DNA of 64,000 nucleotides from an uncultured Saprospiraceae bacterium (GCA_964015035.1 CAXHCA010000005.1:15645-79644); one strand, 5' to 3'; shown: positions 7,232 through 44,440, numbered from the stretch's first letter. The notes: generated by a model not told the origin, from the sequence alone. A program made the numbers and translations.

Positions 7232-7721
7232 ATTATCTTACCTATTTTATTTCGTTGACCACTTTCGCCGTCAAAGAAGGTTGATTCTCAATAAAAAGAG
7301 TGCAAAATTACGCTTTTTCTCTATTAATTGCTTGAATTTCTAGTCATTAACAATGAGCGAGCGGCTGAGGTTCCCAATGGGGTTTGTGCCCGCGAAGACC
7401 GTATTGATTCTGAGAAGGTGCCTCGTGGCGACCAAAATTTTTTCCCCCTCCTGTAAATCCTGTCCAAAAAAGCAGCCGCCTAAAGACACAAGGCATCACC
7501 TGATCGGCCCTGATTTTCCCCGTGGCGGGACTCGTGTGTAGTTCATAAAATACCGGGTTGGAAACCCTCCAATCGTATGGGGGGCGAAGTTGAAAACATT
7601 CGATCATCGGTGGCTTGATCATCGGTTCTGGAAATTTAAAACCACTTGTTTGCAAACTAAAATAAATCGCCCGAACATCTTCCCTCCGAAATTAGTAAAT
7701 TTGTCACTTAATAAGAATACT

Positions 7722-9140
7722 ATGCGCCAATTACTGGAAACAGAGCAAAAAGCGCTCGAGATCAACCTTGATGACGGCATCTACGGCACCTTTGCCGAAA
7801 TCGGTGCGGGGCAGGAAGTCGCCCGTTATTTTTTTCAGGTAGGAGCCGCGGCAGGCACCATTGCAAAAACCATGTCCGCTTACGACAAGGTTTATTCCGA
7901 CCACATCTATGGCCCCGAACCCAGTGGCCGTTATGTTTGTGAATCGCGGCTCTACAAGATGCTCGACCACGAATACGAATTGATGCACTCCCGCCTACAA
8001 AATGAACGGCTGGATACCAATTTTTTTGTTTTTGCCGATACAGTATCGGCCATCAATTACCAACGGACCATCAAAGGCAACGGCTGGCTAGGCATCCGCT
8101 TTCAACTTGATCCGGATGGAGAAGCGAATGACATCGTATTGCATGTGCGAATGCTAGACAACGACAACCAGTTGCAACAGCAAGCCATTGGTATTTTGGG
8201 CGTCAACATGATCTATGGTTGCTTCCACTACAATCAAGACCTAGAGGTTTTTGTACAATCCCTGATGGATAGCCTGCGCGGACGGGTGAAAATCGATATG
8301 ATCCGGATCACTGGACCGGATTTTGAACACATTGACAACCGATTGCTGAGTTTGTGGTTGGTCAAACATCGTCTGACAGAAGTGGCGATGTTTGGACCGG
8401 ATGGCCGCAATCTGCATGCCTCAGAATTCTTGTACAAACGCAATGTGCTGGTGGTTCGAGGCAGCTACCGCCCGGTGACATTGGTCAACCAAGACATGAT
8501 CAAAACCAGCTACCAGCAATTTCGCAACGAGCCGGATGTAGATGCCAAAAAGACCTTTTTGCTCACCGAGATTACGATGGACAACCTGCGTATGGAAGGC
8601 GAACTGGACGAGCGCGATTTCCTCGACCGGGCCGAATTGCTCAATACTCTGGGACATACTGTGGTGATCTCCGATTGTGAGCAACATCAGAAATTGATCG
8701 GTTATCTGTCGGATTACCGGGTGCAGCAATTGGGACTGGTCGTCGGCGTGCGGCCCCTATTGGACATGATCAATGCGAAATACTTCGAAAACATGGACGG
8801 CCGGTTATTGGCTGCCTTTGGGGAACTGTTTACCCGCAATGTCAAGTTGTATGTCTATCCTGCCATGCAGGAAGGTAGTGCCGAACTGATGACGGCTCAA
8901 AACCTACCTATTCCCGAAGGCGTGAAATTTTTGTACCGCCACCTACTCGACAATCGGCAGATTGTGGACGTAGAGGATTTTAATGCAGATCAACTACACA
9001 TCTTCTCCAAGCAAGTGCTGGCCATGTTGCGCAACGGAGAAAGTGATTGGGAGAACATGGTGCCTCCTAAAGTGGCCAAATTGATTAAGGAAAAATACCT
9101 CTTTGGTTATCCGTGCGAAATACTGGAGTTTGAATACTAA
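7722..9140 (+). CDS. Conserved hypothetical protein (about 472 aa)
   Basis: Long ORF. Start moved to the Met at 7722 (MRQLLETEQ) because the upstream 44 codons run into repeat-like non-coding sequence. The block GTFAEIGAGQEVARYFF is recalled from uncharacterised Bacteroidetes proteins. Confidence 0.7.
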   Translation: MRQLLETEQKALEINLDDGIYGTFAEIGAGQEVARYFFQVGAAAGTIAKTMSAYDKVYSDHIYGPEPSGRYVCESRLYKMLDHEYELMHSRLQNERLDTNFFVFADTVSAINYQRTIKGNGWLGIRFQLDPDGEANDIVLHVRMLDNDNQLQQQAIGILGVNMIYGCFHYNQDLEVFVQSLMDSLRGRVKIDMIRITGPDFEHIDNRLLSLWLVKHRLTEVAMFGPDGRNLHASEFLYKRNVLVVRGSYRPVTLVNQDMIKTSYQQFRNEPDVDAKKTFLLTEITMDNLRMEGELDERDFLDRAELLNTLGHTVVISDCEQHQKLIGYLSDYRVQQLGLVVGVRPLLDMINAKYFENMDGRLLAAFGELFTRNVKLYVYPAMQEGSAELMTAQNLPIPEGVKFLYRHLLDNRQIVDVEDFNADQLHIFSKQVLAMLRNGESDWENMVPPKVAKLIKEKYLFGYPCEILEFEY

Positions 9141-9149
9141 AATATCCCT

Positions 9150-9941
9150 ATGAAATATCTTATGCTTTGTCTGGCGTTGATCACCATCGCCTGTGGTAAT
9201 TCGGAGCAGGCGACAGCCCGGCAAGAAGTTGAACAAACACCATCCACTGCCGAAAAGGCGGAAGCCATTGCCATCGACAGTAGTTTCACCATTGACTATA
9301 TCACTGGTCATTTTGATCCGGCTACGCATCCGGATTTTACGCGTATTGAAGACCAGTACACGGATAAAAAGGGGGTGTATTTAAGGAAAGACACCTACGA
9401 GGCCTTTTTGAAGATGTACGCTGCCGCGAAAAAAGACGGCGTCAGGCTTTTAATCCGCTCCGCTACCCGCAATTTTGATTACCAAAAACGCATTTGGGAA
9501 TCGAAATGGGAAGGCAAACAGCAACTTGAAGCCGGTGAAACAGCCCCCAATGCCTACCCTGACCCAAAAGAGCGGGCACTGGCTATCTTGCGGTACAGCT
9601 CCATGCCCGGCACCTCCCGACACCACTGGGGGACGGATATGGATTTGAATGCCTTTAGCAATGCCTACTTTGAAAAAGGAGAAGGCAAAAAGATTTACGA
9701 CTGGCTGACTGCCCATGCGGCTGAATATGGGTTTTGCCAACCTTATAGCGCGGGGCGCCCGTATGGCTACAACGAAGAGCGCTGGCACTGGTCGTACCTG
9801 CCGGTAGCCAAACAACTAACCTATCTGGCTAAAACCCAGCTCAAAGACGAAAACATCAAGGGCTTCAAAGGAGACGAAGCGGCAACGGACATTGGCGTGG
9901 TGGAAAAGTATGTACTGGGCATTAATGAAGCTTGTTTGTGA
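9150..9941 (+). CDS. M15 family D-alanyl-D-alanine carboxypeptidase-like metallopeptidase (lipoprotein)
   Basis: Lipobox LITIAC-G. Zn-ligand blocks SRHHWGTDMDLN and ERWHWSY typical of VanY/LdcB-type M15 enzymes. Confidence 0.8.
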   Translation: MKYLMLCLALITIACGNSEQATARQEVEQTPSTAEKAEAIAIDSSFTIDYITGHFDPATHPDFTRIEDQYTDKKGVYLRKDTYEAFLKMYAAAKKDGVRLLIRSATRNFDYQKRIWESKWEGKQQLEAGETAPNAYPDPKERALAILRYSSMPGTSRHHWGTDMDLNAFSNAYFEKGEGKKIYDWLTAHAAEYGFCQPYSAGRPYGYNEERWHWSYLPVAKQLTYLAKTQLKDENIKGFKGDEAATDIGVVEKYVLGINEACL

Positions 9942-9979
9942 AAATAACAGCTATTTGAGCAAGCCCCAAGGCGTCATCC

Positions 9980-10879
9980 TCACGCTGGATCATTTAACAC
10001 CAATTTGTAACCAACTCCACGAATGTTAGCAATTTTCACACTTGGATCAGCTTCGAGCTTTTTCCGCAGCTTCGAGATGAAAACATCCAATGTTCTGCCC
10101 ATATAATCGCCTTCGTCTCCCCAAACTGTTTTCATGATCACCTCCCGTGCAAGGGTCGTATTGGCAGAGGAGCGTAATAAAGCAAGGAGATCGGCTTCTT
10201 TGCTGGTTAGCTCAATGCTATCTTGATCAAGCGAAAGCTTCATATTTTTTTTATCGAACTGGTAGTCTCCGATCGCAATGATATTCGGATTGGGTTTGGC
10301 GTTGCGCTTTCCCGGCCAAAAAAAATGCCCCAGGCTAAAGAAAAGCAGCAAGACAAATATCCCTGCGCCGAGGCTAAAATACGGGATGTTTTTGGGGGGG
10401 TAGGCAGTAGCAACTTGCAATGATGCCCTCCCGGGCGCTGATGTATCCAAAATGGTGAATAAAAGACGATAACAAGCTTTAGGCTGCATTCTTGGCCCAC
10501 ATGGAATTACATCGGCACTCAGTGAATTCCCAACCAAATAACTATAGACAATCTCACAGGAGGCACAATTTTCCACTTCCACCAAATAGTTACTGGCTAT
10601 TTTGGTATCCATCAGCACACATTCAATGGTTTCCACCAATTCATCTGGTTTGAATTGAAAACCGGATTCAAATGCAATGCGGTAGCGATCCTCTACTTTT
10701 TCAATGGGTAGTACCCGTGACGTGCTATCGCCGGAATTGAGCAGCATTTGATGCCCAATCATCCGCATCAATACTTTGTTCTGCCGGTCGTCTTTGGCGT
10801 CCCGGACATTGCCTTCTGCGGCGAGACAGAGGGTACTTGCCAAAAGCAAAAAAATCGTGCTTAAATGTTTGAAACCCAT
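9980..10879 (-). CDS. Membrane-anchored transcriptional regulator with C-terminal OmpR/PhoB-type winged-helix domain
   Basis: Signal/anchor at the N-terminus, a Cys-containing extracytoplasmic domain, one TM (YFSLGAGIFVLLLFFSLGHFFW), then a wHTH block (LTSKEADLLALL...LDVFISKLRKKL...IRGVGYKL). No receiver domain. Confidence 0.75.
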   Translation of the reverse strand: MGFKHLSTIFLLLASTLCLAAEGNVRDAKDDRQNKVLMRMIGHQMLLNSGDSTSRVLPIEKVEDRYRIAFESGFQFKPDELVETIECVLMDTKIASNYLVEVENCASCEIVYSYLVGNSLSADVIPCGPRMQPKACYRLLFTILDTSAPGRASLQVATAYPPKNIPYFSLGAGIFVLLLFFSLGHFFWPGKRNAKPNPNIIAIGDYQFDKKNMKLSLDQDSIELTSKEADLLALLRSSANTTLAREVIMKTVWGDEGDYMGRTLDVFISKLRKKLEADPSVKIANIRGVGYKLVLNDPA

Positions 10880-10917
10880 GCTGCAAATCTAAACGAATCT
10901 GCTGCACTTTGAAGTGT

Positions 10918-10947
10918 TTTACATTGGATTTTACACTAATTTACACT
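10918..10947. promoter_or_regulatory. Three direct TTTACA(C/T)T repeats upstream of the wHTH regulator (candidate operator)
   Basis: tttacatt at 10918, tttacact at 10930 and tttacact at 10940, spaced 12 and 10 bp. They lie 39-68 nt upstream of the regulator ATG (10879), in the divergent region shared with the protease gene. Confidence 0.35.
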
Positions 10948-11328
10948 AGTTAAAACCTCTGACCGATCCTCAAGCCTGCCTTTGAAAAAAATCATGCTCA
11001 GGGTAAGATTCTCTTTTTGGTAGCAATAGATAATAAAAACCAAAAAAGAACTATGAGTTCGTAATTGAGGGTGCAAAATTAGTAGCCAGACAACTTGGCG
11101 CGAACGTGCTGGTGATTACGGAGATAGAAACGCCCGAAGAAAATAATGCTGGGTTTGCACTTAAAGCAGATATGTATAGAGATATAGACCATAAAGGAGA
11201 AGCAAGCACAACTCCACTCAAGAGCAAGTGATTTAAACTTGAGAAATTCTAAGTGCTCATCGAAGAAATTGGTAGTTTCTTTAATGCATTCTATTTTTCG
11301 TATTTTTATCACCTTATCAACCAGAATT

Positions 11329-12513
11329 ATGATGCGATATTTTTTAGGCTGCTGCCTATTGTTGTTTATTTCAACCAGCGCGCTTTTTTGTCAACAAACC
11401 AATCAAGCCCTTTTGGACTCTCGGGAAGTGCCTTTTGAAATGGTTAAAAATGCCATTATCGTACCCGTCAAAATAAACGGAATCTCTTACCGGTTTGTCT
11501 TGGATACCGGAGGGGTCTTTATGATCTCCAGGAAATTACAAGAACAAGGCAATTTTGTGGTTACCGACTCCATCAGTATTTCCGATATCAATAAACAGGA
11601 GCAGGTTTTTGAAAAAGTTCTCATTGAGGAAGCCTCTATTGGTGAGTTGAGTTTAAAGGATCGAGAAGCCATTGTGCTTTTTGATAACCAATCCTACCCC
11701 AATAGTTGTTTTGAAACCGATGGAATGATCGGGCGAGACTTCTTCGGAGGGATGATCTTACAATTTGACTATGATAATAAGGTCATACGGTTAACCGAAG
11801 ATGAATCGGTTTTTGACCTGGATCAGGAGCATCGAACCAAAATGAAAATCAGCGAAAGAGGAATTGCTGATGTGTTACTCAATATCAACGGCAAGAACCA
11901 ATACATCGAGTTTGATTCCGGCTCTGGCGATTTTTTTAGCTATCAAGCGAAAAAGGCCAAACGGTTGCGCGTGAAATCTAAAGCAGACAAACTCGAATAT
12001 GAGGGCATTTTTTCCTTCGGGGTCAGCAGCAGCAATCTCATCGAATCAAGTACCCGATACAAGGCAAAAGTGTACAACCTGACCATGGGCAGCACCACTT
12101 TTGAAAACTTTTACAGCGACTTCACCAAACCGACTGCGCCCCGAATTGGTGCCAGTATTTTGTATCATGGAAAGGTGACGGTTGATTATAAAAACCTTTG
12201 GTTTTATTTTGAGCCATACCCTACTCAGTTCAAACCGACAACCCTGAGCACCTTCGGATTTGATATCGTGTACCTCCAAGAGCAATATTTGATCAAATGG
12301 GTTTTAAAAGGCTCCGTAGCCGAACAAGAAGGCCTTAAATTTGGCCTTAAGATCAAATCTATTGATGGGACTCCTATTGCTGAAATCATAAAGGGTTGCG
12401 AAACGTATATCAACGGTTACGCCTTTCAGGAAAAGGAAAGCGTTGTTCTTGAATATTACGATCCCAAAGGAACGCTCAAGACCATGACCTTGCATAAAAC
12501 CCAATATGAATAA
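11329..12513 (+). CDS. Secreted retropepsin-like aspartyl protease with C-terminal PDZ domain
   Basis: Signal peptide from the Met at 11329 (MMRYFLGCCLLLFISTSALFC). First Asp motif FVLDTGG (Asp codon 11503-11505), second pseudo-repeat FDSGSGD, and a PDZ-like C-terminus (GLKFGLKIKSIDG). Confidence 0.7.
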   Translation: MMRYFLGCCLLLFISTSALFCQQTNQALLDSREVPFEMVKNAIIVPVKINGISYRFVLDTGGVFMISRKLQEQGNFVVTDSISISDINKQEQVFEKVLIEEASIGELSLKDREAIVLFDNQSYPNSCFETDGMIGRDFFGGMILQFDYDNKVIRLTEDESVFDLDQEHRTKMKISERGIADVLLNINGKNQYIEFDSGSGDFFSYQAKKAKRLRVKSKADKLEYEGIFSFGVSSSNLIESSTRYKAKVYNLTMGSTTFENFYSDFTKPTAPRIGASILYHGKVTVDYKNLWFYFEPYPTQFKPTTLSTFGFDIVYLQEQYLIKWVLKGSVAEQEGLKFGLKIKSIDGTPIAEIIKGCETYINGYAFQEKESVVLEYYDPKGTLKTMTLHKTQYE

Positions 12514-12722
12514 CCCCCGTATTTCTAAAAAAAAACATGCACTTAACGCTGCGAACCAGTAAATGAAAAACACAAATCTAAAATAATGACGAAGCAAATT
12601 AATAGAATCCCATCTGCTCAATCCTTTTTTGGGGACAAACCTGACACCCTCCTGCAATTTGTTAAACACACGCTCTGCTTAAATTGATCAGCACTTTTAG
12701 AAAATAGTTTTACCTTAGATTT

Positions 12723-13502
12723 ATGAGTAAAATTGAAATCCGCACGGTGGATGTGGTGGAATACAGAATGCCCCTGCGGGAAGGGGGCTCGCTGCCGGCG
12801 ATTGTGATGGCCGACGACGACTTCCCCTATGTGTTGAAATTTCGGGGCGCCGGACAGGGCAAGAAGGCCCTGATCGCCGAATTGATCGGTGGAGAACTGG
12901 CCCGGGCCATGGGCCTGAAGGTGCCGGAATTGGTGTTTATGAACCTGGACGATTCCTTTAGCAAAACCGAACCGGATGAAGAAATTCAGGACTTGCTGAA
13001 ATTCAGTGTCGGACTCAACATGGGCTTACATTTTCTATCTGGGGCCATCACTTACGATCCGCTGGTGCCGATTGGCGAAAGCCGGTATGTCTCGAAGATC
13101 GTGCTATTGGATAGTATCATTACCAATATTGACCGGACGGCAAAAAACACGAATCTGCTGAACTGGAAAAATGAACTGTGGCTCATCGACCACGGAGCAA
13201 GTTTGTATTTTCACCACAACTGGGCCAATTGGGAGTCGCACCTCGATCGTACCTTTCCGAACGTCAAGGATCACGTCCTACTCAAACGAGCCGATCATTT
13301 GGCGGAAGCCGCAGCGGAAATCAAGGATTTAATCAGCGAAGCCAAGATTGAGGAGATTATTGCGTTGATTCCGGAAGATTGGTTGTTGGAGGAATCCAAC
13401 CCACTGACCCCGCAGGAAATGCGGGCCGCTTATGTGCGCTTTTTGAATACCAAATTGGCCAATATCGATTCACTAGCCAAAGAAGCGGAAAATGCCAGAT
13501 AG
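12723..13502 (+). CDS. HipA-like serine/threonine kinase family protein
   Basis: 259 aa. HipA_C-type catalytic loop ITNIDRTAKNTN (Asp 13131-13133) and Mg-binding WLIDHGAS (Asp 13188-13190). Confidence 0.75.
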   Translation: MSKIEIRTVDVVEYRMPLREGGSLPAIVMADDDFPYVLKFRGAGQGKKALIAELIGGELARAMGLKVPELVFMNLDDSFSKTEPDEEIQDLLKFSVGLNMGLHFLSGAITYDPLVPIGESRYVSKIVLLDSIITNIDRTAKNTNLLNWKNELWLIDHGASLYFHHNWANWESHLDRTFPNVKDHVLLKRADHLAEAAAEIKDLISEAKIEEIIALIPEDWLLEESNPLTPQEMRAAYVRFLNTKLANIDSLAKEAENAR

Positions 13503-13878
13503 AGTAACCTACGAATTTGCGGTGATCCGGGTGGTGCCCCGGGTGGAGCGCGAAGAGTTTCTCAACGTGGGGGTGATGCTGTTTTCCAAACGCAAAAAAT
13601 ACCTGGGTATTCGCTATAAGATTGATGAAGTCAGGCTGACCCACTTCTCTCCCGATATTGACCTCGATTTGATCAAAAACCACCTGCATGCCTGGGAATT
13701 GGTTTGTCAAGGCGGCCCGGATGCCGGTCCGATCGGTCAGTTTGATTTGCCATCCCGCTTTCGCTGGCTCACCGCAGCACGGAGTACCATCATTCAAAGC
13801 TCTAAAACCCATCCGGGGAGGTGCACTGACCCGGAGCAAGTACTGGAAGGGTTGTTTGAACGGTATGTCGGGGAATAA
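13492..13878 (+). CDS. DUF3037 domain protein
   Basis: 128 aa. N-terminal YEFAVIRVVPRVEREEFLNVGVMLF is typical of DUF3037. The start overlaps the kinase stop by 11 nt. Confidence 0.75.
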   Translation: MPDRVTYEFAVIRVVPRVEREEFLNVGVMLFSKRKKYLGIRYKIDEVRLTHFSPDIDLDLIKNHLHAWELVCQGGPDAGPIGQFDLPSRFRWLTAARSTIIQSSKTHPGRCTDPEQVLEGLFERYVGE

Positions 13879-13977
13879 TGGTGGGTTTATTTATGAAACG
13901 ATGTATCTATACCGGTCTACTTTTCTGGGGAGCTTTTTATTTCTGTTCATTTCTGACAATAGTTCGGTGAAAATTAA

Positions 13978-14508
13978 GAGCATATTTGGAGCGGATTCTA
14001 TTTGAAAACGGGCTTTATAATACCGACCAAACAATCATTTCATAAATGATGATATCTTGATCTTGATAAAGCCACTTGAGTTGCCTTTTGTCGATCTTTT
14101 TTAAATCGACTTTGCCATCATATTTTTTGGGTTGTCCCCGACCTTTAGTTTTTGGGCCATGGTATAGATATTTCAAATTGGCATCACAACGTAGTTTTGA
14201 GATAATACGCAGATCGGTCAATGCACTGACAGGGTCAACGAATGATTGTTTAGCAAAATAATCGTCTACGGCCAGGTAAGTTGATAGCGAAGCTAATTTC
14301 TCCCAGCGATCAATAATGACTTGGACATAGTGATCGTGGATCGTTGCAGTTGGCAACTTCAACAGCCTACGTTTACACGATTGGTAATCCGTACACGGCC
14401 TCGTAAGGAGAATAATCATCCCTTATGCTCCTTCAAAAGCTTCCTTTTGTTTTTCCCATAGAAAAGTAATATTTTCACGGGGTGGAAATACTACCTCCAA
14501 TCAGGTAC
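13978..14508. mobile_element. Decayed insertion sequence (531 bp) with MITE-family-A-type termini, flanked by 3-bp TAA duplications
   Basis: Left end gagcatatttggag is identical over 14 nt to the left end of the MITE at 55324. Right end actacctccaatcaggtac matches the reverse complement of the MITE left TIR at 16 of 19 positions by eye. TAA lies at 13975-13977 and at 14509-14511. A truncated transposase ORF lies inside. Confidence 0.65.
14015..14419 (-). pseudogene. DDE transposase fragment (IS4/IS5-superfamily-like; family uncertain)
   Basis: 134-aa ORF with a YLAVDDYF block (second-Asp region) and KGRGQPKKYDGKV, as in IS4/IS701-like transposases. Far too short for an intact transposase. 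Confidence 0.6.
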
Positions 14509-14521
14509 TAAAACCCTAACC

Positions 14522-16468
14522 ATGGTTGAAACCATTGCTGAAAGCAACTTTTATCTGCTCGACGGTAATTTGAGTGTCGCTGATGCTGCCGTTGCCGTTG
14601 CGAATGCTCCTTACTACTATATCCTGATCGACCGCGAAGATGCCGGCGATCATTTCTACTACTTTTATTCCCAGGAAGAATTACTCAACAGACTCTCCCG
14701 GCTACCCAAACCCGTTCCCGTAAAATTGGCCATGCAACTCCACTTGGAGCAGCCCCTGCCCACCTTACCCTTTGATGCACCGTTGTCAGCCAGGGTGGAG
14801 GAATGTTATGCGATCCTCAAGGGAGACGAGGTGGTTGGACTGATTTATGATAAAGAAGTAGCCGAAGCATCACCGCCGCCGCCACCTGCACCTTCGGTGC
14901 CCGGTAGCGACAAAGGGACTTCCCGAGGTGGCGCAACCATTGAAGAGGAAACAGTCGAAACCTTCGAAGCATACCCCAGTATCAGCGATCCAGGCATTGT
15001 CAAGCCGGATCAGACCTTCAAGGTTTTTGTGGGCTTCAGCTCGGAAAAAGACGAAAGCCTGGAAGAAGGAGAAATCATCGTCATCGACCGGCCGGATGAA
15101 GATATCCCGGCTAAGGTGTCCCTGATGGTGACCGGGGGTAAGGTCGCCGATAAGGACAATCGCGCCAAGCCGATTATGCTGGATCCAGACGCTCAAACCT
15201 CGTTTACAATAACGGTCAACAGCAATGCCACGGAGGTTAATATCATAGCCATGTACCGCTACAATAAACGCATCGTTGGCAATGCACAGCGCGTTATTCC
15301 GGTGAAACAGGCCGCCGCACCAGCTCCGACTCCAGCTGAAACTCCGGCTCCAGACCAGGGCAAACGCTGCCAATTGTCCATTGCCAGCGCCAGTTTTGAG
15401 CAGGCGCAACCTGATCTCACCATTGTCATACGGCAGGACCGCAGTGCTCAGCAATTGGTTTGGGAAATTGATGCCCCGGAACTGGATCTACTGGAAAAGG
15501 CGACCACCCCAATTGCCGATGCGCGGGCTTTCGCCAAACGCATTGGCTCCGAACTCAAGGCCGAAGATTTTAAGGATGCCCTGGCCAATAATATTTTGGT
15601 AACCCTGGGAGAGTCCATTGCCGACCTCTTGCCGGATGCCTTCTTTACGGCCCTGCACGGCGTGCATGAGGCTATTAACCGAACGCCACGTCTATTGTTG
15701 TTAACCGATGAAGCCTATATTCCCTGGGAACTGGCTTACGGAAAAAGGCTTACCGTAGACGACAATCATCCGCGTTTTTTGGGGGCACAAGTAATCATGG
15801 GCCGCTGGTGGCTGCACGAACGAGTCGTCACGCCGCCTCCATCTGGGTTGAAAATATTGCAGCTTTCCGCCATAGCGGCCAATTATAATGCACTGGTGGC
15901 GAGAGTGGCCAAATTGCCTGAAGCTCTTGAAGAAAAGGCTTTTCTGGAAAAAGAATTTAAAGCCACCAGTATTCCCGCTACGGTAGATGGAGTGCTGGGG
16001 ATGACCATGACGCAACCGGTAGAAGGAAACCTGGTGCATATGGCCCTGCACGGACACAGCGACTCCGTCTTTAATGAGCAAAAACTGATCTTGGAAGACG
16101 GCAAAGGATTAAATCCCAATGCCATGTTTGGTCCTTATGATTGCGGTGATCAACCGGCCATTTCCTTTATGTTTCTCAATGCCTGTCAGGTAGGTACGGC
16201 GGGAGAAACCCTAGGGCAGGCCAGTGGATTTCCAGGGATATTGCTGAAAAAAGGCATGTTGGGTTTCATCGCACCATTGTGGGAAGTACATGATGTGGCC
16301 GCTCGTGAATTTGCGGAGACCTTTTATCAAGAAACGCTTAACAATAAAAAGCCTGTTGCCGAAGTACTGCTAGACCTTCGCCGTAAGTATGACTTTAAGG
16401 AATCACTGACCCCATTGGCCTATCTCTATTATGGTCATCCGGGGTTGGTATTAGATTATAAACACTAA
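14522..16468 (+). CDS. CHAT-domain (caspase-like) protease with a novel multi-module N-terminal region
   Basis: 648 aa. C-terminal CHAT domain with His in HMALHGH (16049-16051) and Cys in FLNACQVG (16184-16186). Two Pro/Ala-rich linkers lie at ~14867-14911 and ~15308-15364. Confidence 0.85.
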   Translation: MVETIAESNFYLLDGNLSVADAAVAVANAPYYYILIDREDAGDHFYYFYSQEELLNRLSRLPKPVPVKLAMQLHLEQPLPTLPFDAPLSARVEECYAILKGDEVVGLIYDKEVAEASPPPPPAPSVPGSDKGTSRGGATIEEETVETFEAYPSISDPGIVKPDQTFKVFVGFSSEKDESLEEGEIIVIDRPDEDIPAKVSLMVTGGKVADKDNRAKPIMLDPDAQTSFTITVNSNATEVNIIAMYRYNKRIVGNAQRVIPVKQAAAPAPTPAETPAPDQGKRCQLSIASASFEQAQPDLTIVIRQDRSAQQLVWEIDAPELDLLEKATTPIADARAFAKRIGSELKAEDFKDALANNILVTLGESIADLLPDAFFTALHGVHEAINRTPRLLLLTDEAYIPWELAYGKRLTVDDNHPRFLGAQVIMGRWWLHERVVTPPPSGLKILQLSAIAANYNALVARVAKLPEALEEKAFLEKEFKATSIPATVDGVLGMTMTQPVEGNLVHMALHGHSDSVFNEQKLILEDGKGLNPNAMFGPYDCGDQPAISFMFLNACQVGTAGETLGQASGFPGILLKKGMLGFIAPLWEVHDVAAREFAETFYQETLNNKKPVAEVLLDLRRKYDFKESLTPLAYLYYGHPGLVLDYKH

Positions 16469-16487
16469 TAAACTAAACTGAAACATC

Positions 16488-17996
16488 ATGGGTAAGGAAA
16501 CTCCATTAGCCGGAAGTATTGAACCCATCAAAATATCTTCCAGTGAATTCACGCTGCATTGTCCGGGTATGCACGGTATGGTCAAGGAAATGGAAACCGA
16601 TAAATCCACTACCCGAGGGCCTGGCGTAGAGGACCCTATGCATAAAATGGTGATGGAGTCGGCGAAGGACAATGATATCATCCTGTTTAATCAATTTGAA
16701 ATTGAGATCGAAAAGGATGATCTAAAAGACGCTCCGGAAACGCAGACCCGGGCGGCCGGAGTCACCCGTACAACAGAGATGGGAGAACCGGCGATGGTGC
16801 TTTCCGCGCCAAAGCTCGAAGAAAATATGGCCTCTGCGGTACTGTATACCGATGAAGACGGGGAGTCGCGCTGGGTCTTTCCCGAAGAGAAAAACCCTCG
16901 GGATAAATTCACCTTTTTGCTGCCGCGTGAAGGTGCGCCACCTCTCCCCACAGATGGATCTACCGTGCGCGGGGTCATTACCAAAGGCATTCGGCGGGTA
17001 GTCAAGGTGTTTGCCTGGCTAACGGATGAAATCGTCGGCGCGGGGGCTTTGATTCTGGTCAAAAACTGGGAAAGTAAAAAACGACCTTACACTTTAAATT
17101 CTGTGTTAGCCGATCGGGATGATGCACCGGTTGATTGGGACAAGATATCCGGAGAGCGATCTCTGTTGCTCATTCACGGCACCTTTTCTACTTGGCAGTC
17201 GGCTTTTGACGGTTTGCGCAGGAGTAAAACCTGGTTTCCGCAAATGCAGGAGTTTTACGGCAACCGCATATTTGCTTTTAATCATCCCAGTTTGCACCAG
17301 ACGCCGGCAGAAAATGTCAAAACCTTGATGGAAATGCTGCCCGATGGGGTTGAATTGGATATCGACATTATTACGCACAGTCGGGGAGGTCTGGTCGGTC
17401 GAGAAATGTGTGAAAGACTGGCGGATATTGACCCTTTTGGTCGGAAGGTGGCCATCAAAAAGGCCATTTTTGTGGCGGGCCCACACCTTGGTACCACCTT
17501 ACTGAATAAAGATCATATACTGACACTGATCGATACCTACACCAACATGCTCACCAATTTACCCGATAATCCGGCGACGATTATCATGGAAGCAATTGTC
17601 AATCTGGTGAAGATTATTGGAGGCGGGGCGATTGAAGGATTACCGGGTTTACAGTCTATGGTGCCTGATGGTGATTATATCAAGCGCCTGAATGGTACGC
17701 CTCCTATCGATACCACTTATTACGCCATAGGGGCTAAGTATGCACCCCATGACGAAAAGTTGCTACAACGCTTTGGCAAACGTCTGTTGATGAAAGTGCT
17801 GGCCAAGATATTTGAAGAGGATAGTGATATGGTAGTGCCTACTATGGGGTCTTTTGATACCCTACTCGGTAACGGGGGCTTTCCCATTCCGGAAGACCGG
17901 CAGAAATTGTATCAAATGGATGACGATATCAACCACATTACCTTCTTTGAACACGATGTAGTGAATCGGCAGTTGTTTAATTGGTTGTCATCATAA
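16488..17996 (+). CDS. Alpha/beta-hydrolase (lipase/esterase-like) with ~225-aa N-terminal extension
   Basis: 502 aa. LLIHGTFS strand and nucleophile elbow ITHSRGG (Ser codon 17379-17381). Starts 19 nt after the CHAT gene stop. Confidence 0.75.
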   Translation: MGKETPLAGSIEPIKISSSEFTLHCPGMHGMVKEMETDKSTTRGPGVEDPMHKMVMESAKDNDIILFNQFEIEIEKDDLKDAPETQTRAAGVTRTTEMGEPAMVLSAPKLEENMASAVLYTDEDGESRWVFPEEKNPRDKFTFLLPREGAPPLPTDGSTVRGVITKGIRRVVKVFAWLTDEIVGAGALILVKNWESKKRPYTLNSVLADRDDAPVDWDKISGERSLLLIHGTFSTWQSAFDGLRRSKTWFPQMQEFYGNRIFAFNHPSLHQTPAENVKTLMEMLPDGVELDIDIITHSRGGLVGREMCERLADIDPFGRKVAIKKAIFVAGPHLGTTLLNKDHILTLIDTYTNMLTNLPDNPATIIMEAIVNLVKIIGGGAIEGLPGLQSMVPDGDYIKRLNGTPPIDTTYYAIGAKYAPHDEKLLQRFGKRLLMKVLAKIFEEDSDMVVPTMGSFDTLLGNGGFPIPEDRQKLYQMDDDINHITFFEHDVVNRQLFNWLSS

Positions 17997-18020
17997 GTCA
18001 CATTCACTAATGCACGGCCC

Positions 18021-19133
18021 ATGCAAAACCTCATTTTTTGGATTTTTATCTTGGCTACGGCAGTGCAATTGTTCTTTTGGGGAGGGGTGTTTTCCAGGTT
18101 GGCCCGGTATTTGGTAAAAAAAAATAAAAAATCTGAGGCCACTCATTTTCCCGGAGTTTCAGTAGTGATTTGCGCCCGCAATGAAGCGGAAAATCTGAAA
18201 AAAAACCTTCCCGGCATCCTCCAACAGGATTATCCTTTGTTTGAAGTTATCGTCGTAAATGACGATTCAAATGATGAAACCTGGAAAATTCTTTTGGATT
18301 TTCAAACAAAAAATCCGATCTTACACCCTGTAAACGTCACAGAAAAGTTGTTGCCCGGAAAAAAGGCAGCATTGACAAAGGGCATCGAAGCCGCCCGTCA
18401 TGAAATCATATTACTCACCGACGCAGATTGTCGGCCTACAAGTAAGGAATGGATTTTTAAAATGCAATCCGCACTTAAAGGCAAAATTCAAATCGGTTTA
18501 GGTTATGGTCCGTATTTTTCTAAGAAAGGCTTCCTGAATACTTTTATACGCTTTGAGACTGTTTACGCGGCTATCCAATACCAATCCTTCACATTAATGC
18601 GAATGCCCTACATGGGTGTAGGGCGAAATTTAGTTTATCGCAAGTCTTTGTTTGCAAAAGCAAATGGCTTTCGAAAACATGCTCATCTTGCGTCCGGTGA
18701 TGATGATTTATTCATTAATGCCGTTGCTAATGGGCATAATACTACTGTTATATTAGATCCAGCCACTTTTGTGTTTTCCGAAGCCAAAAGCAGCTGGAGA
18801 GACTACTACTACCAAAAATCGAGACACTTAACTACTGGTAGCCATTATCGGCTCCGCCACCAATTGGCACTGGGCGCACTTGCAGCCAGCCATTTTGGGC
18901 ATTACGCCGGCGCGATAATTCTACTTGGGTTAGGAGTCAGCCCTCAGGCAATTTGTATATGGTATTTGGTGAGAATCCTAGTAGTAGTCGCAGTGTATGC
19001 AGGCATCCTATCCAAACTCAAGGCAGTTGATCTGCTTCCCTGGATCCCTTTTCTAGACTTATTTTATCTGCTCTACTACTTGGCATTTACACCGGCTTTA
19101 TTAACAACCGGCAATCAAAGAAAATGGAAGTAG
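18021..19133 (+). CDS. Family 2 glycosyltransferase (membrane-associated)
   Basis: GT-A blocks VSVVICARNE, VNDDSNDET and TDADC. C-terminal TM segments. Confidence 0.85.
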   Translation: MQNLIFWIFILATAVQLFFWGGVFSRLARYLVKKNKKSEATHFPGVSVVICARNEAENLKKNLPGILQQDYPLFEVIVVNDDSNDETWKILLDFQTKNPILHPVNVTEKLLPGKKAALTKGIEAARHEIILLTDADCRPTSKEWIFKMQSALKGKIQIGLGYGPYFSKKGFLNTFIRFETVYAAIQYQSFTLMRMPYMGVGRNLVYRKSLFAKANGFRKHAHLASGDDDLFINAVANGHNTTVILDPATFVFSEAKSSWRDYYYQKSRHLTTGSHYRLRHQLALGALAASHFGHYAGAIILLGLGVSPQAICIWYLVRILVVVAVYAGILSKLKAVDLLPWIPFLDLFYLLYYLAFTPALLTTGNQRKWK

Positions 19134-19771
19134 TAGCCAAAAACGTATTATCAAAAAAGGCCCACGCCGATTATGAATTGGTAAAAAAGGCCGTACAAGG
19201 CGATCAAAGAGCGTATGCTTCACTGATGAATCGTTACCAAACCTCGATTTATCACCTGATGTTGAAAATGGTCAACGATCGCGAAGACGCCAATGACCTC
19301 ACCATTGAGGCTTTTGGTAAGGCTTTTCTTAAACTCCCCAGCTACGTACCGCGCTACGCTTTTAGTACCTGGTTGTTTAAGATTGCTATCAATAATTGCA
19401 TCGATTACGTGCGTAAAAAGCGCATGTTGACCTACTCTATCGATGATCCGATCGAACCGGATAGCGAGCAGGATTACAGCAGTAGCTTGCGGGCCAAAGT
19501 GCTCAACCCGGAAGAGGAAGTGATTCGCAAGCAACGGGTCAAATTGATGAGACAAGTATTAACCAAACTCAGTAATAAGTACCGTCTGATGATCGAGCTG
19601 CGCTTTTTTGAAGAGCTCAGCTATGAAGAAATATCCAACGAGTTGAATATTCCACTCGGAACGGTAAAAGCTCAATTGTTTCGGGCCAAAGAAATGCTCT
19701 ACGAATTGTTGCAACAGCCAGGTGCCAGTGCCTATCTGGAAACAACAAGACGTCGGACAGGAACAGCCTGA
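19124..19771 (+). CDS. RNA polymerase sigma-70 family (ECF-type) sigma factor
   Basis: Region 2 (DLTIEAFGKAFLKL...WLFKIAINNCIDYVRKK) and region 4 (LSYEEISNELNIPLGTVKAQLFRAK). Overlaps the GT2 stop by 10 nt. Confidence 0.85.
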   Translation: MEVVAKNVLSKKAHADYELVKKAVQGDQRAYASLMNRYQTSIYHLMLKMVNDREDANDLTIEAFGKAFLKLPSYVPRYAFSTWLFKIAINNCIDYVRKKRMLTYSIDDPIEPDSEQDYSSSLRAKVLNPEEEVIRKQRVKLMRQVLTKLSNKYRLMIELRFFEELSYEEISNELNIPLGTVKAQLFRAKEMLYELLQQPGASAYLETTRRRTGTA

Positions 19772-19898
19772 TTGTTTTTACGATTTAGTCGTAAGCCCAA
19801 AAGTTATCCTAATTAATATTAAGCTTTAGTTTCAACAAGTTCACATTCGATAGGAGTCTTCTTCTCAGAGAAGGCTCCTATTTTTTGTAGTACTTTGC

Positions 19899-19906
19899 TA
19901 ATTTTG
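19899..19906 (+). promoter_or_regulatory. Bacteroidetes-type -7 box TAnnTTTG (TAATTTTG)
   Basis: Exact TAnnTTTG match 13 nt upstream of the ATG at 19919. No well-spaced -33 TTTG was confirmed. Confidence 0.3.
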
Positions 19907-19918
19907 CAGGAAAAAGTT

Positions 19919-20479
19919 ATGAAAGCAACCTTTGCCAATTTTTTTCTGCTCATTAGTGCCTTCTTGTGTTTATTCACTTCCTGTGGCCCCACAGCGGATG
20001 CACCAAACAGCAATCGCGATGATCAACTAGCTGCTATCAATGCGTTGGAACAAAAATTGCGTGCTCAAAAAGACGTCAAATTGGATACGGCTTCCGCCAA
20101 TGCGCTGATCGAGCAGAGCATGGATTTTGTCACCACTTACCCCAGTGATTCTTTGTCCGGCGATATCTTATTCAAAGCTGCCGATGTATCAAGAGGCGTA
20201 GGGCATTACCAACAAGCTATTGAGATGTGGGACCGTTTTTATCGCGAATATCCTACCCACGACAAAGTGCCCATTTCCCTCTTTCTGAAGGCATTTACCG
20301 CAGATAAAGATTTGAAAGATGTCGGATTGGCTATTTCCTCTTACGAACGATTCCTACTAAAATATCCGGATCATCCGGTGGCCAAGGATGCCCGTTTTTT
20401 ACTGGAAATCCTGCAAAACGATCAATCGCCGGAGGAGCTGATCAAACAGTTTGAAAAGAATAATCCGGGAGATGAATAA
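19919..20479 (+). CDS. TPR-like lipoprotein
   Basis: Lipoprotein signal MKATFANFFLLISAFLCLFTSC from the internal Met at 19919. Helical repeat composition (YbgF/TPR-like). Confidence 0.6.
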   Translation: MKATFANFFLLISAFLCLFTSCGPTADAPNSNRDDQLAAINALEQKLRAQKDVKLDTASANALIEQSMDFVTTYPSDSLSGDILFKAADVSRGVGHYQQAIEMWDRFYREYPTHDKVPISLFLKAFTADKDLKDVGLAISSYERFLLKYPDHPVAKDARFLLEILQNDQSPEELIKQFEKNNPGDE

Positions 20480-20675
20480 TGCTTTTGTTACTAAAGCGTT
20501 AAAGTTGACCAGACTGGCCGGAAGGGAGGACATGCGCCCGCTAGATTTTGGTTATCTTGCAGGTTAATGTAATTCGTACCTGACAATTGGGAGATTACCT
20601 TCTAAAAAGACTTGCCTTTCGGCCAATGTTACGGCTGTTGTCAGTACCGAAAGAACTAAAATAAAAGACCTCATT

Positions 20676-21848
20676 ATGAAAAATTTGATTTTAACCTCAC
20701 TTATATTATTCATCGGATTGGTTAATGCTAAGGCTCAAGGGATTGAGTTTTTCCACGGCACGTGGGAAGAAGCGGTGGCCAAAGCGCAGAAAGAAGAAAA
20801 AGTCATTTTTGTGGATGCCTACGCCAGTTGGTGCGGACCGTGCAAGCGCATGGCCGCCAATGTGTTTCCACAGCCGGAAGTGGGCGAATTTTTTAATAAA
20901 AACTTCGTTTGCCTCAAGCTGGATATGGAGAAAGATCCGGTAGGGGTGCGGTTTCGTCAAAAATATCCCGTTTCGGCATTTCCTACCCTTTATTTCATCG
21001 ATTACAATGAAGAAGTGGTGCAGGTGGTTCGCGGTGCTCAACAGGCTGATGCCTTGATCAAATTGGGGGAGAGTGTGTTGGGAAAAGTAGACCGTAGTGG
21101 CGAATTTTCGGAGGCTTACGAAAATGGCGACCGCAACCCGGAATTGGTGTACAACTACGTTAAAGCCCTCAACCGGGCAGGAAAGTCCAGTCTGAAAATT
21201 GCCAATGACTACCTACGCGATCAGGAAGACCTGACCACGGAGCAAAACCTCAAATTTATCCTGGAAGCGACTACCGAAGCCGATTCGCGAATTTTTGCAT
21301 TGATGATTGAAAATCGCAAGTCCATTGAAGCCCTGATGGGCAAAGAAGCAGTACAGGAAAAAATTATGCAAGCTTGTCAGGCCACTGCACAAAAAGGCAT
21401 CGAGTTTGAAAGTAAGGACCTGATTGACGAAGCCATCGGCAAGATGAAAAAGCATTATCCTGCGGAAGCGGAAGTTTTTGCCATCAAGACCCAGATGTCC
21501 TTTTGCCTGGAATGCCAAGATGCTAAAGAATACGTTGACGCTTGTAAGGATTACGCCAAGAAGGTAGTCAACAACGATCCGGAGCACTTGGACAAATTGG
21601 CCATCACCCTGCTCAAGAAATTTGGCGATGATGACAAGGCGATGAAAACGGCAGAAAAATTTGCCGAAAAGGCAGCAAAAGACAGCAATCGCTACGAATA
21701 TTACATCACCTATGCCGATATTTTGAAGAAAAACGGCAAGCAGAAAGATGCATTGGATGCCGCTAATAGATCACTGGAACTTGCTCGGGAGCAAGGGCCC
21801 AATGCCGTGCGGATGGTGGAAGGTTTTATTCAGCGCATTCAAGGGTAA
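20676..21848 (+). CDS. Thioredoxin-fold protein with helical C-terminal domain (exported)
   Basis: Signal peptide, WCGPCK redox motif, 390 aa. Confidence 0.8.
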   Translation: MKNLILTSLILFIGLVNAKAQGIEFFHGTWEEAVAKAQKEEKVIFVDAYASWCGPCKRMAANVFPQPEVGEFFNKNFVCLKLDMEKDPVGVRFRQKYPVSAFPTLYFIDYNEEVVQVVRGAQQADALIKLGESVLGKVDRSGEFSEAYENGDRNPELVYNYVKALNRAGKSSLKIANDYLRDQEDLTTEQNLKFILEATTEADSRIFALMIENRKSIEALMGKEAVQEKIMQACQATAQKGIEFESKDLIDEAIGKMKKHYPAEAEVFAIKTQMSFCLECQDAKEYVDACKDYAKKVVNNDPEHLDKLAITLLKKFGDDDKAMKTAEKFAEKAAKDSNRYEYYITYADILKKNGKQKDALDAANRSLELAREQGPNAVRMVEGFIQRIQG

Positions 21849-43169: not shown

Positions 43170-43718
43170 GTGACCGACCAGGAAATATTTGAAGGCATCG
43201 CTCGCAAAGACAATCAGACCTTTTTATTCCTTTATCAGGAACATCAGGGCCAGATTTTGCGAATGGTGCAAAAGAACAGTGGAAATGAAGCCGACGCGCA
43301 CGATATCTTTCAGGAAGGATTGGTGGCACTCTGGACGAATATTTCACGAGGTAAATTTGTGCAAAAAGACAATGCCAAGATTTCGACTTACCTGTATACG
43401 TTGTGCCGGAACATCTGGATTAGCCGTTTGAGAAAAAGAAAAAATATACTATCGATCGATAAGCGCCCACATCTGGAGGTAGCGGCGGAAGTGGATGAAA
43501 TGGAGGCGCAATACGACCAGATTGCGATGCTGGAAAATCAATTTGCCAAACTCGGCGATGCCTGCAGGAAGATCTTGACGCTTTTTTATTATCAAAAAGC
43601 CGCCCTGAAGGAGATTGCGGAGCTTATGCAGATCACGGAGAAGACCGCCAAAAACACCAAATATCGCTGTATGCAAAATTTGCGTACCATTTATGAAACA
43701 GAAACTCAAGGACAATGA
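43170..43718 (+). CDS. ECF-type RNA polymerase sigma factor
   Basis: GTG start. Region 2 (DIFQEGLVALW...YLYTLCRNIWISRLRKR) and region 4 (ALKEIAELMQITEKTAKNTKYRCMQNL). Confidence 0.85.
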   Translation: MTDQEIFEGIARKDNQTFLFLYQEHQGQILRMVQKNSGNEADAHDIFQEGLVALWTNISRGKFVQKDNAKISTYLYTLCRNIWISRLRKRKNILSIDKRPHLEVAAEVDEMEAQYDQIAMLENQFAKLGDACRKILTLFYYQKAALKEIAELMQITEKTAKNTKYRCMQNLRTIYETETQGQ

Positions 43719-44440
43719 AAGAGGAATTAATGGAGCGGATCGAAGCTTTCCTGGACGGTAAAATCAGTCGGGAGGAATTGCAACGGGACGCCGATGCCTT
43801 GGGGGAAACGGATTTGCAGGAAAAAATCACATGGTTTACAAATACCCAAACGGCCATTGAAGCGGCAGGCTTGCGCAACCAATTGCAAGATATTTTACCC
43901 AAACCTCAACATAAAGAAGCCAAGGTAGTCAGGTTTACCCGCAACCGCTGGACATGGGCTATTGCGGCTTCTCTGCTTTTACTAGTGGTGGCCTATTGGG
44001 GCGTCAACAACTTTTCCAACCCTGGCCTTTACGCCGAATATGAATACGTTGATCCGGGCTTGCCCGTGTTGATGAGCCAGTCGGACGACTACCAACTCTA
44101 CGATGCATTGACTTATTATAGTGAAGGCAATTATGCGGTAGCAGAAGAAAAATTACTACAAATTGAGGAACAATCTCCAGCGAGCGATACACTGGTTTAT
44201 TATTTGGGGGCCAGTCAGCTCTACCAGGGAAAAACCACTGCTGCCGAAGGGAATTTGTCTAAGGTGGCCAATGTTGAAAATTCTAAGTTTGTACAGCGAG
44301 CAGAATGGCTCCTGATCCTGGTGGCATTAAAGGAACAGCATATGGAAAAGGCCAAACAATTATTGCAGCAAATCCTGGCTACACCGGATCACGAATTTTT
44401 GCAACAGGCCCAAAGTTTACAAAAAGAGTTGGGGGAATGA
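43715..44440 (+). CDS. Anti-sigma-factor-like single-pass membrane protein with TPR-like outer domain
   Basis: ATGA overlap with the sigma gene. Short cytoplasmic N-domain, TM WTWAIAASLLLLVVAYWGV and a helical-repeat C-domain. Confidence 0.6.
   Translation: MKEELMERIEAFLDGKISREELQRDADALGETDLQEKITWFTNTQTAIEAAGLRNQLQDILPKPQHKEAKVVRFTRNRWTWAIAASLLLLVVAYWGVNNFSNPGLYAEYEYVDPGLPVLMSQSDDYQLYDALTYYSEGNYAVAEEKLLQIEEQSPASDTLVYYLGASQLYQGKTTAAEGNLSKVANVENSKFVQRAEWLLILVALKEQHMEKAKQLLQQILATPDHEFLQQAQSLQKELGE

Follow-up and report, generated by a model that had tools for sequence, protein, structure and literature searches.

Why does a bacterial genome carry a caspase-like protease gene and a lipase-like hydrolase gene side by side, on the same strand and only 19 nt apart? 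The question is raised by two open reading frames (ORFs) in a stretch of 64,000 nt from an uncultured Saprospiraceae bacterium (GCA_964015035.1 CAXHCA010000005.1:15645-79644), hereafter the window, in which positions are counted from the first letter. ORF1 (14522..16468, +) encodes 648 residues arranged as a TCAD7 domain, an immunoglobulin-like (Ig-like) module and a CHAT caspase-fold cysteine protease; ORF2 (16488..17996, +) encodes 502 residues of a DUF7379 lipase-like alpha/beta-hydrolase with a putative N-terminal pro-domain. Both descriptions derive from Pfam, AlphaFold2 models and Foldseek comparisons of the listed ORFs. The pair is a genuine two-gene, functionally coupled protease-effector cassette. 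Judged from sequences and predicted structures, the best-supported reading appears to be that the protease licenses the hydrolase, the two genes forming a self-contained, proteolysis-licensed death effector module, to which we assign a probability of roughly 60%.

The composition had been proposed to be undescribed, but it has precedents. The caspase-superfamily domain of VMAP ternary systems always has an alpha/beta-hydrolase gene as its neighbour, and a related hydrolase also occurs in GAP1 GTPase conflict systems (Kaur et al. eLife 2020, PMC7159879). In Lysobacter capsici AZ78 the pairing has been characterised biochemically: LcCaspase cuts the adjacent LcHydrolase at R73/G and R117/G (a slash marks the bond cut, or proposed to be cut), the resulting fragments kill E. 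coli only if the junctions are exact and both the N- and the C-terminal fragment are present, and the R/G motifs are shared by 161 homologs (Evans et al. bioRxiv 2025, PMC12642450). Evans et al. name no substrate for LcHydrolase, which HHpred relates to lipases and oligopeptidases (PMC12642450). Because the pairing has thus been described, ORF1-ORF2 is not a new kind of system. None of the papers in the literature searched mentions DUF7379, PF24096, TCAD7 or PF19973.

Two intact enzymes

The original prediction, made from the sequence alone, had given the coordinates, lengths and spacing of the two ORFs exactly, as borne out by the ORF list and translation, and had placed the codons of His510 (16049-16051) and Cys555 (16184-16186) in ORF1 and of Ser298 (17379-17381) in ORF2 correctly. 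Its assignment of the two catalytic domains likewise stands. Pfam CHAT (PF12770) matches ORF1 residues 446-614 at 37.4 bits (cut-off 24; E 2.5e-9), and Pfam DUF7379 (PF24096) matches ORF2 residues 226-402 at 158.6 bits (cut-off 33; E 2.3e-46), covering model positions 1-191 of 191.

The AlphaFold2 model of ORF1 has a mean predicted local distance difference test score (pLDDT) of 78 and consists of three folded parts joined by two Pro/Ala linkers with pLDDT <50; these low-confidence segments, residues 113-145 and 265-284, coincide with the linkers that the original prediction had picked out. The protease domain proper extends over residues 285-648 (15374..16465, +) and finds its best Foldseek matches in Csx29, the TPR-CHAT protease of Craspase (E 2e-11), and in separases. 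Since these alignments run over ~370 columns, the helical region formerly taken for a separate module belongs to the CHAT fold as its N-terminal half. The catalytic dyad is invariant, His510 and Cys555 being intact in 13/13 homologs down to 23% identity.

ORF2 is modelled with a mean pLDDT of 81 as a beta-rich N-domain (1-146), a disordered loop (153-162), a helical hairpin (163-198) and an alpha/beta core (202-502). The core, which we delimit as residues 223-502 (17154..17993, +), most closely resembles family-I bacterial lipases in Foldseek, those of Geobacillus (T1), Proteus, Burkholderia and Pseudomonas, and the protein also gives weak Pfam matches to the lipid-esterase families Palm_thioest, DUF676 and PGAP1. 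It carries an oxyanion HG motif (His230) and a catalytic triad of the nucleophile Ser298, Asp447 (17826-17828) and His483 (17934-17936). All three triad residues are kept without exception in those of the 189 distinct homologs that have residues at these columns.

Linkage and fusion across genomes

The coupling of the two genes is seen most clearly outside the window. A scan of one genome per species (185,579 species genomes) returned 567 loci with ORF2 relatives; the DUF7379 family is rare and phyletically patchy. The best 80 of the 567 loci, drawn from at least 10 phyla, were analysed, and 77 of them had enough upstream DNA to be informative. In 58/77 a CHAT gene lies immediately upstream of the DUF7379 gene on the same strand, which is strong linkage, and homologs of as little as 26% identity, set in unrelated flanks, still show this gene order. 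By their N-termini the 58 CHAT genes comprise 19 with TCAD7 plus the Ig-like part, 22 with the Ig-like part only and 17 others (e.g. HEAT repeats), and a module homologous to the Ig-like part of ORF1 is accordingly present in 41/58 adjacent partners. The nearest relatives of the pair are found in Saprospiraceae metagenome-assembled genomes (MAGs), at 83-90% protein identity.

Protease and hydrolase also occur within one polypeptide. Three loci (L052, L065 and L075) encode a Peptidase_C14-X-DUF7379 protein, and of nine plasmid matches obtained with tblastn, all but two lie within genes whose annotation is CHAT protein. The SPO_RS20450 product of the Ruegeria pomeroyi DSS-3 megaplasmid combines DUF7379 (residues 210-382) with CHAT (residues 662-943), and the next gene encodes a SIR2 + ABC-type ATPase protein; an Azotobacter plasmid carries a single DUF7379-CHAT polypeptide beside a type I restriction-modification system and IS701. 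This fused form is therefore present in a cultured organism, R. pomeroyi DSS-3, and the family at large is represented in culture by Herpetosiphon aurantiacus DSM 785, Paraburkholderia piptadeniae and Nocardioides. A CHAT homolog of 23% identity partners an LCAT/PGAP1-type lipase-like hydrolase instead.

Several individual loci deserve description in their own right. L052 (7916-18032) and L065 (7505-15464) are multi-protease clusters in which the C14-X-DUF7379 gene is followed by a C14-nSTAND1-WD40 or nSTAND1-WD40 gene, and in L052 an additional CHAT protein is encoded after the STAND gene. In five Bacteroidota loci (L017, L031, L034, L037 and L038) a DUF7379 gene without a CHAT neighbour directly follows a same-strand gene of ~1050 residues; the Pfam families summarised for these loci (AAA_23, SbcC_Walker_B, Metallophos and SbcD_C) point to sbcD-sbcC. 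L039 and L047 are two CHAT + DUF7379 loci of the same Herpetosiphonaceae MAG (isolate F20_78), so the module can occur as paralogous copies in one genome.

A putative pro-domain and its candidate cleavage sites

The N-terminal extension of ORF2 had been regarded as unrecognisable, a description that the family does not bear out. Residues 1-161 (16488..16970, +) form a beta-rich, family-specific domain, a putative pro-domain with three Arg-(Gly, Ser or Ala) motifs, and the N-terminal region has the invariant residues E123, W129, P146, R161, G162, R169 and W177. A search of 1.8 billion representative proteins found the domain confined to the N-termini of ~500-residue members of the DUF7379 family. 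At E <= 0.001 ORF2 is matched by 262 database proteins, those listed being ~500 residues long, and a sequence search of the N-terminal 223 residues against the PDB gave no matches; in Foldseek the list for the whole protein is taken up by lipases, which leaves the N-domain without a fold assignment.

The three motifs, TTR43/G44 (16614-16619, +), TR88/A89 (16749-16754, +) and VR161/G162 (16968-16973, +), are candidate cleavage sites. Each lies in a loop of variable length, the first two within the N-domain and the third at the boundary between pro-domain and core. The alignment of the 189 distinct homologs shows R161 in 183/184 sequences, G162 in 176/182, R43 in 159/177 and R88 in 127/159, the last two followed by G, S or A, while the surrounding loops vary in length and composition. 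Two of the motifs coincide with the segments of lowest confidence in the ORF2 model, residues 44-46 and 153-162 (pLDDT <50). The fused DUF7379 proteins retain the R/G site, as do the DUF7379 proteins from the five Bacteroidota loci lacking a CHAT neighbour. What the alignment shows is the presence of these motifs, as candidate cleavage sites.

A cut at R161 would give the hydrolase a new N-terminus beginning with a helical hairpin (residues 162-222; 16971..17153, +; helices 163-178 and 180-198). The helix immediately after R161/G162, GVITKGIRRVVKVFAWL, is cationic and amphipathic (residues 163-181); its hydrophobic moment is the highest in ORF2 (muH 0.68), its net charge is +4, and the consensus ITKxGRRxVxVxAW is conserved in this helical stretch.

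The candidate sensor side of the protease

The first ~380 residues of ORF1, said earlier to match nothing, resolve into TCAD7, an Ig-like sandwich and the N-terminal half of the CHAT fold. Residues 1-112 (14522..14857, +) constitute TCAD7 (PF19973), a candidate ligand sensor or regulator. The Pfam score is 23.4 bits in the whole protein, just below the cut-off of 24, rises above threshold to 28.0 bits for the isolated residues 1-115, and reaches 48-59 bits in ORF1 homologs. A profile built from 19 TCAD7 segments and run against PDB sequences returned CBS proteins as its four best and most of its other matches, all marginal in E-value: 2yzi at 2.5e-4, Ta0289 (1pvm) at 1.3e-3 with positions 2-111 aligned over the full length, and CBS-CP12 (5nmu) at 0.0096. 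Pfam CBS weakly matches two TCAD7 homologs (E 0.02 and 0.13). On the strength of these profile and Pfam matches we read TCAD7, with moderate confidence, as a divergent CBS-pair-like alpha+beta module. The secondary structure in the AlphaFold2 model is compatible with a beta-alpha-beta-beta-alpha repeat, the second copy looking degenerate. No other part of ORF1 evolves as fast as TCAD7, which shares 71% identity with the closest homolog where CHAT shares 90%; in the next clade the values are ~25% and ~57%.

A disordered Pro-rich linker (residues 113-145; 14858..14956, +; pLDDT <50) connects TCAD7 to the Ig-like domain and contains the motif GTSR/GGA at Arg135 (14924-14926), which shares the T-x-R-G pattern of the ORF2 sites and may be an autoprocessing site. 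Corresponding TRGG or TRGS motifs, sometimes twice, occur in the linkers of L001, L004, L010/L011, L014 and L071/L072 and are absent from L002 and L006-L008. The all-beta Ig-like sandwich that follows (residues 146-262; 14957..15307, +) is built from strands only, is modelled at pLDDT 76-87 and matches a Fab and an amylopullulanase beta-sandwich in Foldseek.

A proposed model of proteolytic licensing

Adjacency, fusions, conserved active sites and Arg-Gly motifs at the domain boundary together match the published cleavage logic, and it is from this match that we infer a mechanism running from protease to hydrolase. The original prediction had suggested that the CHAT protease could activate the hydrolase by proteolysis, the N-extension serving as a pro-domain, and this idea fits the linkage, the fusions, the intact active sites, the boundary R-G motifs and the LcCaspase precedent (PMC12642450). 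It is also favoured by the restriction of the N-domain to this family, by the lack of a signal-peptide-like N-terminus in either protein on inspection, and by the rapid evolution of TCAD7.

ORF2 would be made as an inactive cytoplasmic pro-enzyme, its N-domain (residues 1-161) lying ahead of the lipase-like Ser-Asp-His hydrolase. The CHAT protease of ORF1 would likewise be held inactive until its TCAD7 and Ig-like modules are signalled to, probably by the appearance of a ligand or protein, or by a shift in the level of a metabolite, upon infection or another insult. Active ORF1 would then cut ORF2 after R43, R88 and above all at R161/G162, which would remove the pro-domain and leave the cationic amphipathic helix exposed as the new N-terminus. 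Once set free, the esterase or lipase would attack an ester-linked substrate of the cell, most likely a membrane lipid, and the cell would be killed or arrested.

A more specific elaboration is doubtful, and we offer it tentatively. TCAD7 could be a working CBS-type ligand sensor in a minimal death switch free of a nucleoside triphosphatase (NTPase). CHAT would respond directly to a changing adenosyl metabolite or nucleotide messenger, possibly via self-cleavage at TSR/GG, and its cut at R161/G162 would take the pro-domain off the lipase and unmask a membrane-directing helix.

Genomic context in the window

The neighbours of the pair are an insertion sequence (IS) fragment, a HipA_2/DUF3037 gene pair, a GT2 glycosyltransferase gene and a gene for an extracytoplasmic function (ECF) sigma factor. 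The IS701-family transposase fragment (14015..14419, -) corresponds to positions 176-252 of 412 of the NCBIfam IS701 profile, that is to an internal piece of the transposase, and matches annotated transposases in tblastn. The decayed IS that had been noticed upstream is thus real and of IS701 type, but it lies 102 nt from its ORF end to the ATG of ORF1, not 14 bp; no IS terminus could be defined for the fragment. The window is collinear with an 83%-identical relative from 14436 onward, where synteny breaks, and we attribute the divergent upstream DNA to a rearrangement beside the IS fragment.

Immediately upstream of the IS fragment, at 12723-13878 (+), a HipA_2-type kinase gene (259 residues) overlaps a gene for a DUF3037 protein (128 residues), and the two match both parts of the PADLOC candidate PDC-M66 (E 1e-26 and 9e-10). 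A PADLOC scan of the 54 window ORFs found nearby only these PDC-M66A/B matches; those to PDC-M37B, DolB and TPR models lie outside 9980-21848. Two genes upstream of the HipA_2 gene, a 424-residue protein (11239-12513, +) has a retropepsin-like aspartyl protease domain (Asp_protease_2, E 2e-8), a weak PDZ match and no PADLOC match.

Downstream, the GT2 glycosyltransferase gene starts 24 nt past ORF2 and is followed by the overlapping ECF sigma factor gene. The first terminator-like site in this region (18021-19882, +) is a strong hairpin at 19849-19882, and because none precedes it the four genes may be co-transcribed. Only the 83% relative shares the ORF1-ORF2-GT2-ECF arrangement. A sigma-70 promoter scan, with a tool that does not cover Bacteroidota promoters, found no more sites than in shuffled sequence.

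The window contains a second CHAT protease of 1103 residues (44305-47616, +), with TPR at residues ~190-470 and CHAT at ~740-1044. An ECF-type sigma factor gene (43170-43718, +) lies ahead of it.

Purpose and alternative readings

An immune purpose, in the form of abortive infection, would be in keeping with relatives that lie near C14-nSTAND1-WD40 genes, SIR2 + ABC-type ATPase genes or type I restriction-modification genes. The contexts of some relatives suggest an anti-phage role; PADLOC and the flanks in general do not. Several results weigh against the module as we read it. Neither ORF1 nor ORF2 matches any family of PADLOC-DB v2 at E <= 0.01, so that none of its protein models recognises the pair, and the sole defence-type neighbour in the window, PDC-M66, is missing from the locus of the closest relative. 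The flanks of 37 related loci (two genes per side, the 25 commonest families shown) present a housekeeping mix in which no family occurs more than three times and no defence neighbour recurs. No homolog was found in phage records. Fifteen of the 77 loci have no CHAT gene adjacent to DUF7379, several of them lying downstream of sbcDC. MoxR and vWA genes, and VMAP genes with them, are absent from those 25 commonest flank families and from the 25 commonest families of the 54 window ORFs. LcHydrolase, finally, is an imperfect counterpart: it has ~295 residues and two sites, as against 502 residues, a ~160-residue N-domain and three candidate sites in ORF2, and the two are compared by description, not by sequence homology.

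The same biochemistry might serve another end, as a cell-death, developmental or stress switch in filamentous or multicellular bacteria, or in conflict with kin or competitors. The hosts are rich in filamentous or aggregating taxa (Saprospiraceae, Lewinella, Herpetosiphon, Anaerolineae, Caldilineaceae, Microthrix and actinomycetes), Kaur et al. link such systems to a multicellular habit (PMC7159879), and the mostly housekeeping flanks and the silence of PADLOC agree with such a purpose. We nevertheless consider it unlikely, given that some relatives sit beside nSTAND1-WD40, SIR2-ATPase and type I restriction-modification genes, and that a patchy distribution over at least 10 phyla and two copies in one MAG are both typical of accessory conflict genes. 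Quite unlikely, in our estimate, is that the pair is the output arm of a dispersed system, ORF1 being activated in trans by a cascade from the TPR-CHAT protease at 44305-47616 or by a ternary system of MoxR-vWA type with TCAD7 as its recognition point. For a cascade, which is conceivable, speak the loci L023-L026, where TCAD7-CHAT + DUF7379 directly follow a TPR-CHAT gene, the presence of a TPR-CHAT gene 26 kb away in the window, and the TSR/GG linker of ORF1, which could be cut by another protease or by ORF1 itself. The TPR-CHAT protein of the window, however, is one of a common kind and has no specific similarity to ORF1. The Pfam full name of TCAD7, 'ternary complex associated domain 7', implies a ternary-system origin, and to judge by the name its wording points to the ternary-system work of Kaur et al. 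Yet Pfam and NCBIfam reveal no MoxR, vWA or VMAP among the ORFs across 7590-21848, within ~6 genes of the pair, nor in L001-L003, and we reject membership of a MoxR-vWA-VMAP ternary system on these grounds; most loci, moreover, consist of two genes only.

Gene linkage gives no direction, both enzymes are catalytically intact, and the fusions would also suit joint action on a single target, so that the two could act side by side, the hydrolase for instance deacylating or processing what the protease also cuts, or in reverse order, the hydrolase regulating the protease; ORF2 would then be no zymogen. This we regard as improbable: the R-G and T-R-(G, S or A) motifs stand in variable, exposed loops of ORF2 and at a domain boundary, the N-domain is family-specific and non-catalytic, and the published precedent runs from protease to hydrolase. 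Least credible of all, and very unlikely, is ordinary lipid metabolism or lipase maturation, with a housekeeping esterase and its dedicated processing protease outside any conflict. It would suit the lipase-like fold of ORF2, the housekeeping flanks in Saprospiraceae and the syntenic position in the closest relative; against it speak the rarity and patchiness of the family, the fusion or adjacency of some members to caspase-STAND-WD40 and SIR2-ATPase genes, and the rapid evolution of the N-terminal domain of the protease. By inspection neither ORF1 nor ORF2 has a signal-peptide-like N-terminus, and a maturation pair for a secreted lipase is rejected because of this.

Significance

Licensing of effectors by proteases is coming to be seen as a widespread logic in bacterial immunity, and the DUF7379 family offers a compact two-gene version of it: the hydrolase has a lipase-like core and a discrete putative pro-domain with sharply defined sites of predicted cleavage, and the protease carries a small candidate sensor. 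The pair is a tractable one in which to ask what the hydrolase targets, by what means a CHAT protease becomes active when it has no ATPase partner, and whether DUF7379 belongs in catalogues of defence genes. A known principle is here extended to a family without a functional name in Pfam, NCBIfam or PADLOC, and nothing is overturned.

Relation to known systems

By structure the nearest relative of the ORF1 protease is found in type III-E Craspase, in which Csx29, a TPR-CHAT protein, cleaves Csx30, a sigma-factor regulator. Both are CHAT proteases gated by a signal and directed at a co-encoded protein, as predicted in the case of ORF1. The likeness ends there: identity to Csx29 is only 10-13%, ORF1 lacks the TPR arm and carries TCAD7 and the Ig-like module, and ORF2 is a putative enzyme zymogen whereas the Craspase substrate is a regulator. 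No cas-like Pfam domains occur in the ~15 flanking ORFs scanned, CRISPR arrays not having been searched for. We reject membership of type III-E Craspase, the TPR-CHAT architecture and the Cas7-11/gRAMP and Csx30 neighbours being absent. For the sensor side, the closest comparison is with CBS-pair (Bateman) domains, the best PDB sequence matches of the TCAD7 profile at marginal E-values of 2.5e-4 to 1e-2; to our knowledge a CBS-like module on a CHAT protease has not been characterised.

The logic of the proposed mechanism also recurs with another effector. Trypsin- or caspase-like proteases are paired with zymogens of the metallo-beta-lactamase (MBL)-fold nuclease type (Tuck et al. 2025, PMC12799240; Evans et al. 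2025), where a latent enzyme is licensed by a site-specific cut from an adjacent, sensor-fused protease, as we propose for ORF2; the effector there is a double-stranded DNA nuclease, here a lipase-like esterase. With the systems of Kaur et al. (2020) the pair shares the caspase-superfamily domain and neighbouring alpha/beta-hydrolase, and the N-domain of ORF1 falls in a Pfam family, TCAD7, named after ternary complexes, but the pair differs in that no MoxR, vWA, VMAP or GTPase gene lies near it or in the sampled loci. A close parallel is LcCaspase-LcHydrolase, in which a caspase-fold cysteine protease likewise adjoins a lipase-like alpha/beta-hydrolase with conserved R-G motifs, those of ORF2 being R-(G, S or A) motifs in exposed loops at which cleavage is predicted. 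LcCaspase, however, has an N-terminal caspase domain with its catalytic Cys at position 129, whereas the CHAT domain of ORF1 is C-terminal, behind TCAD7 and the Ig-like module. Overall, ORF1-ORF2 represents the known caspase/alpha-beta-hydrolase module in a new, stand-alone form without an NTPase gene nearby: its protease is of the C-terminal CHAT rather than the N-terminal C14 type, a CBS-like TCAD7 and Ig-like N-terminus replaces the STAND or WD40 sensor, and its larger hydrolase appears to bear a discrete N-terminal pro-domain with three candidate sites.

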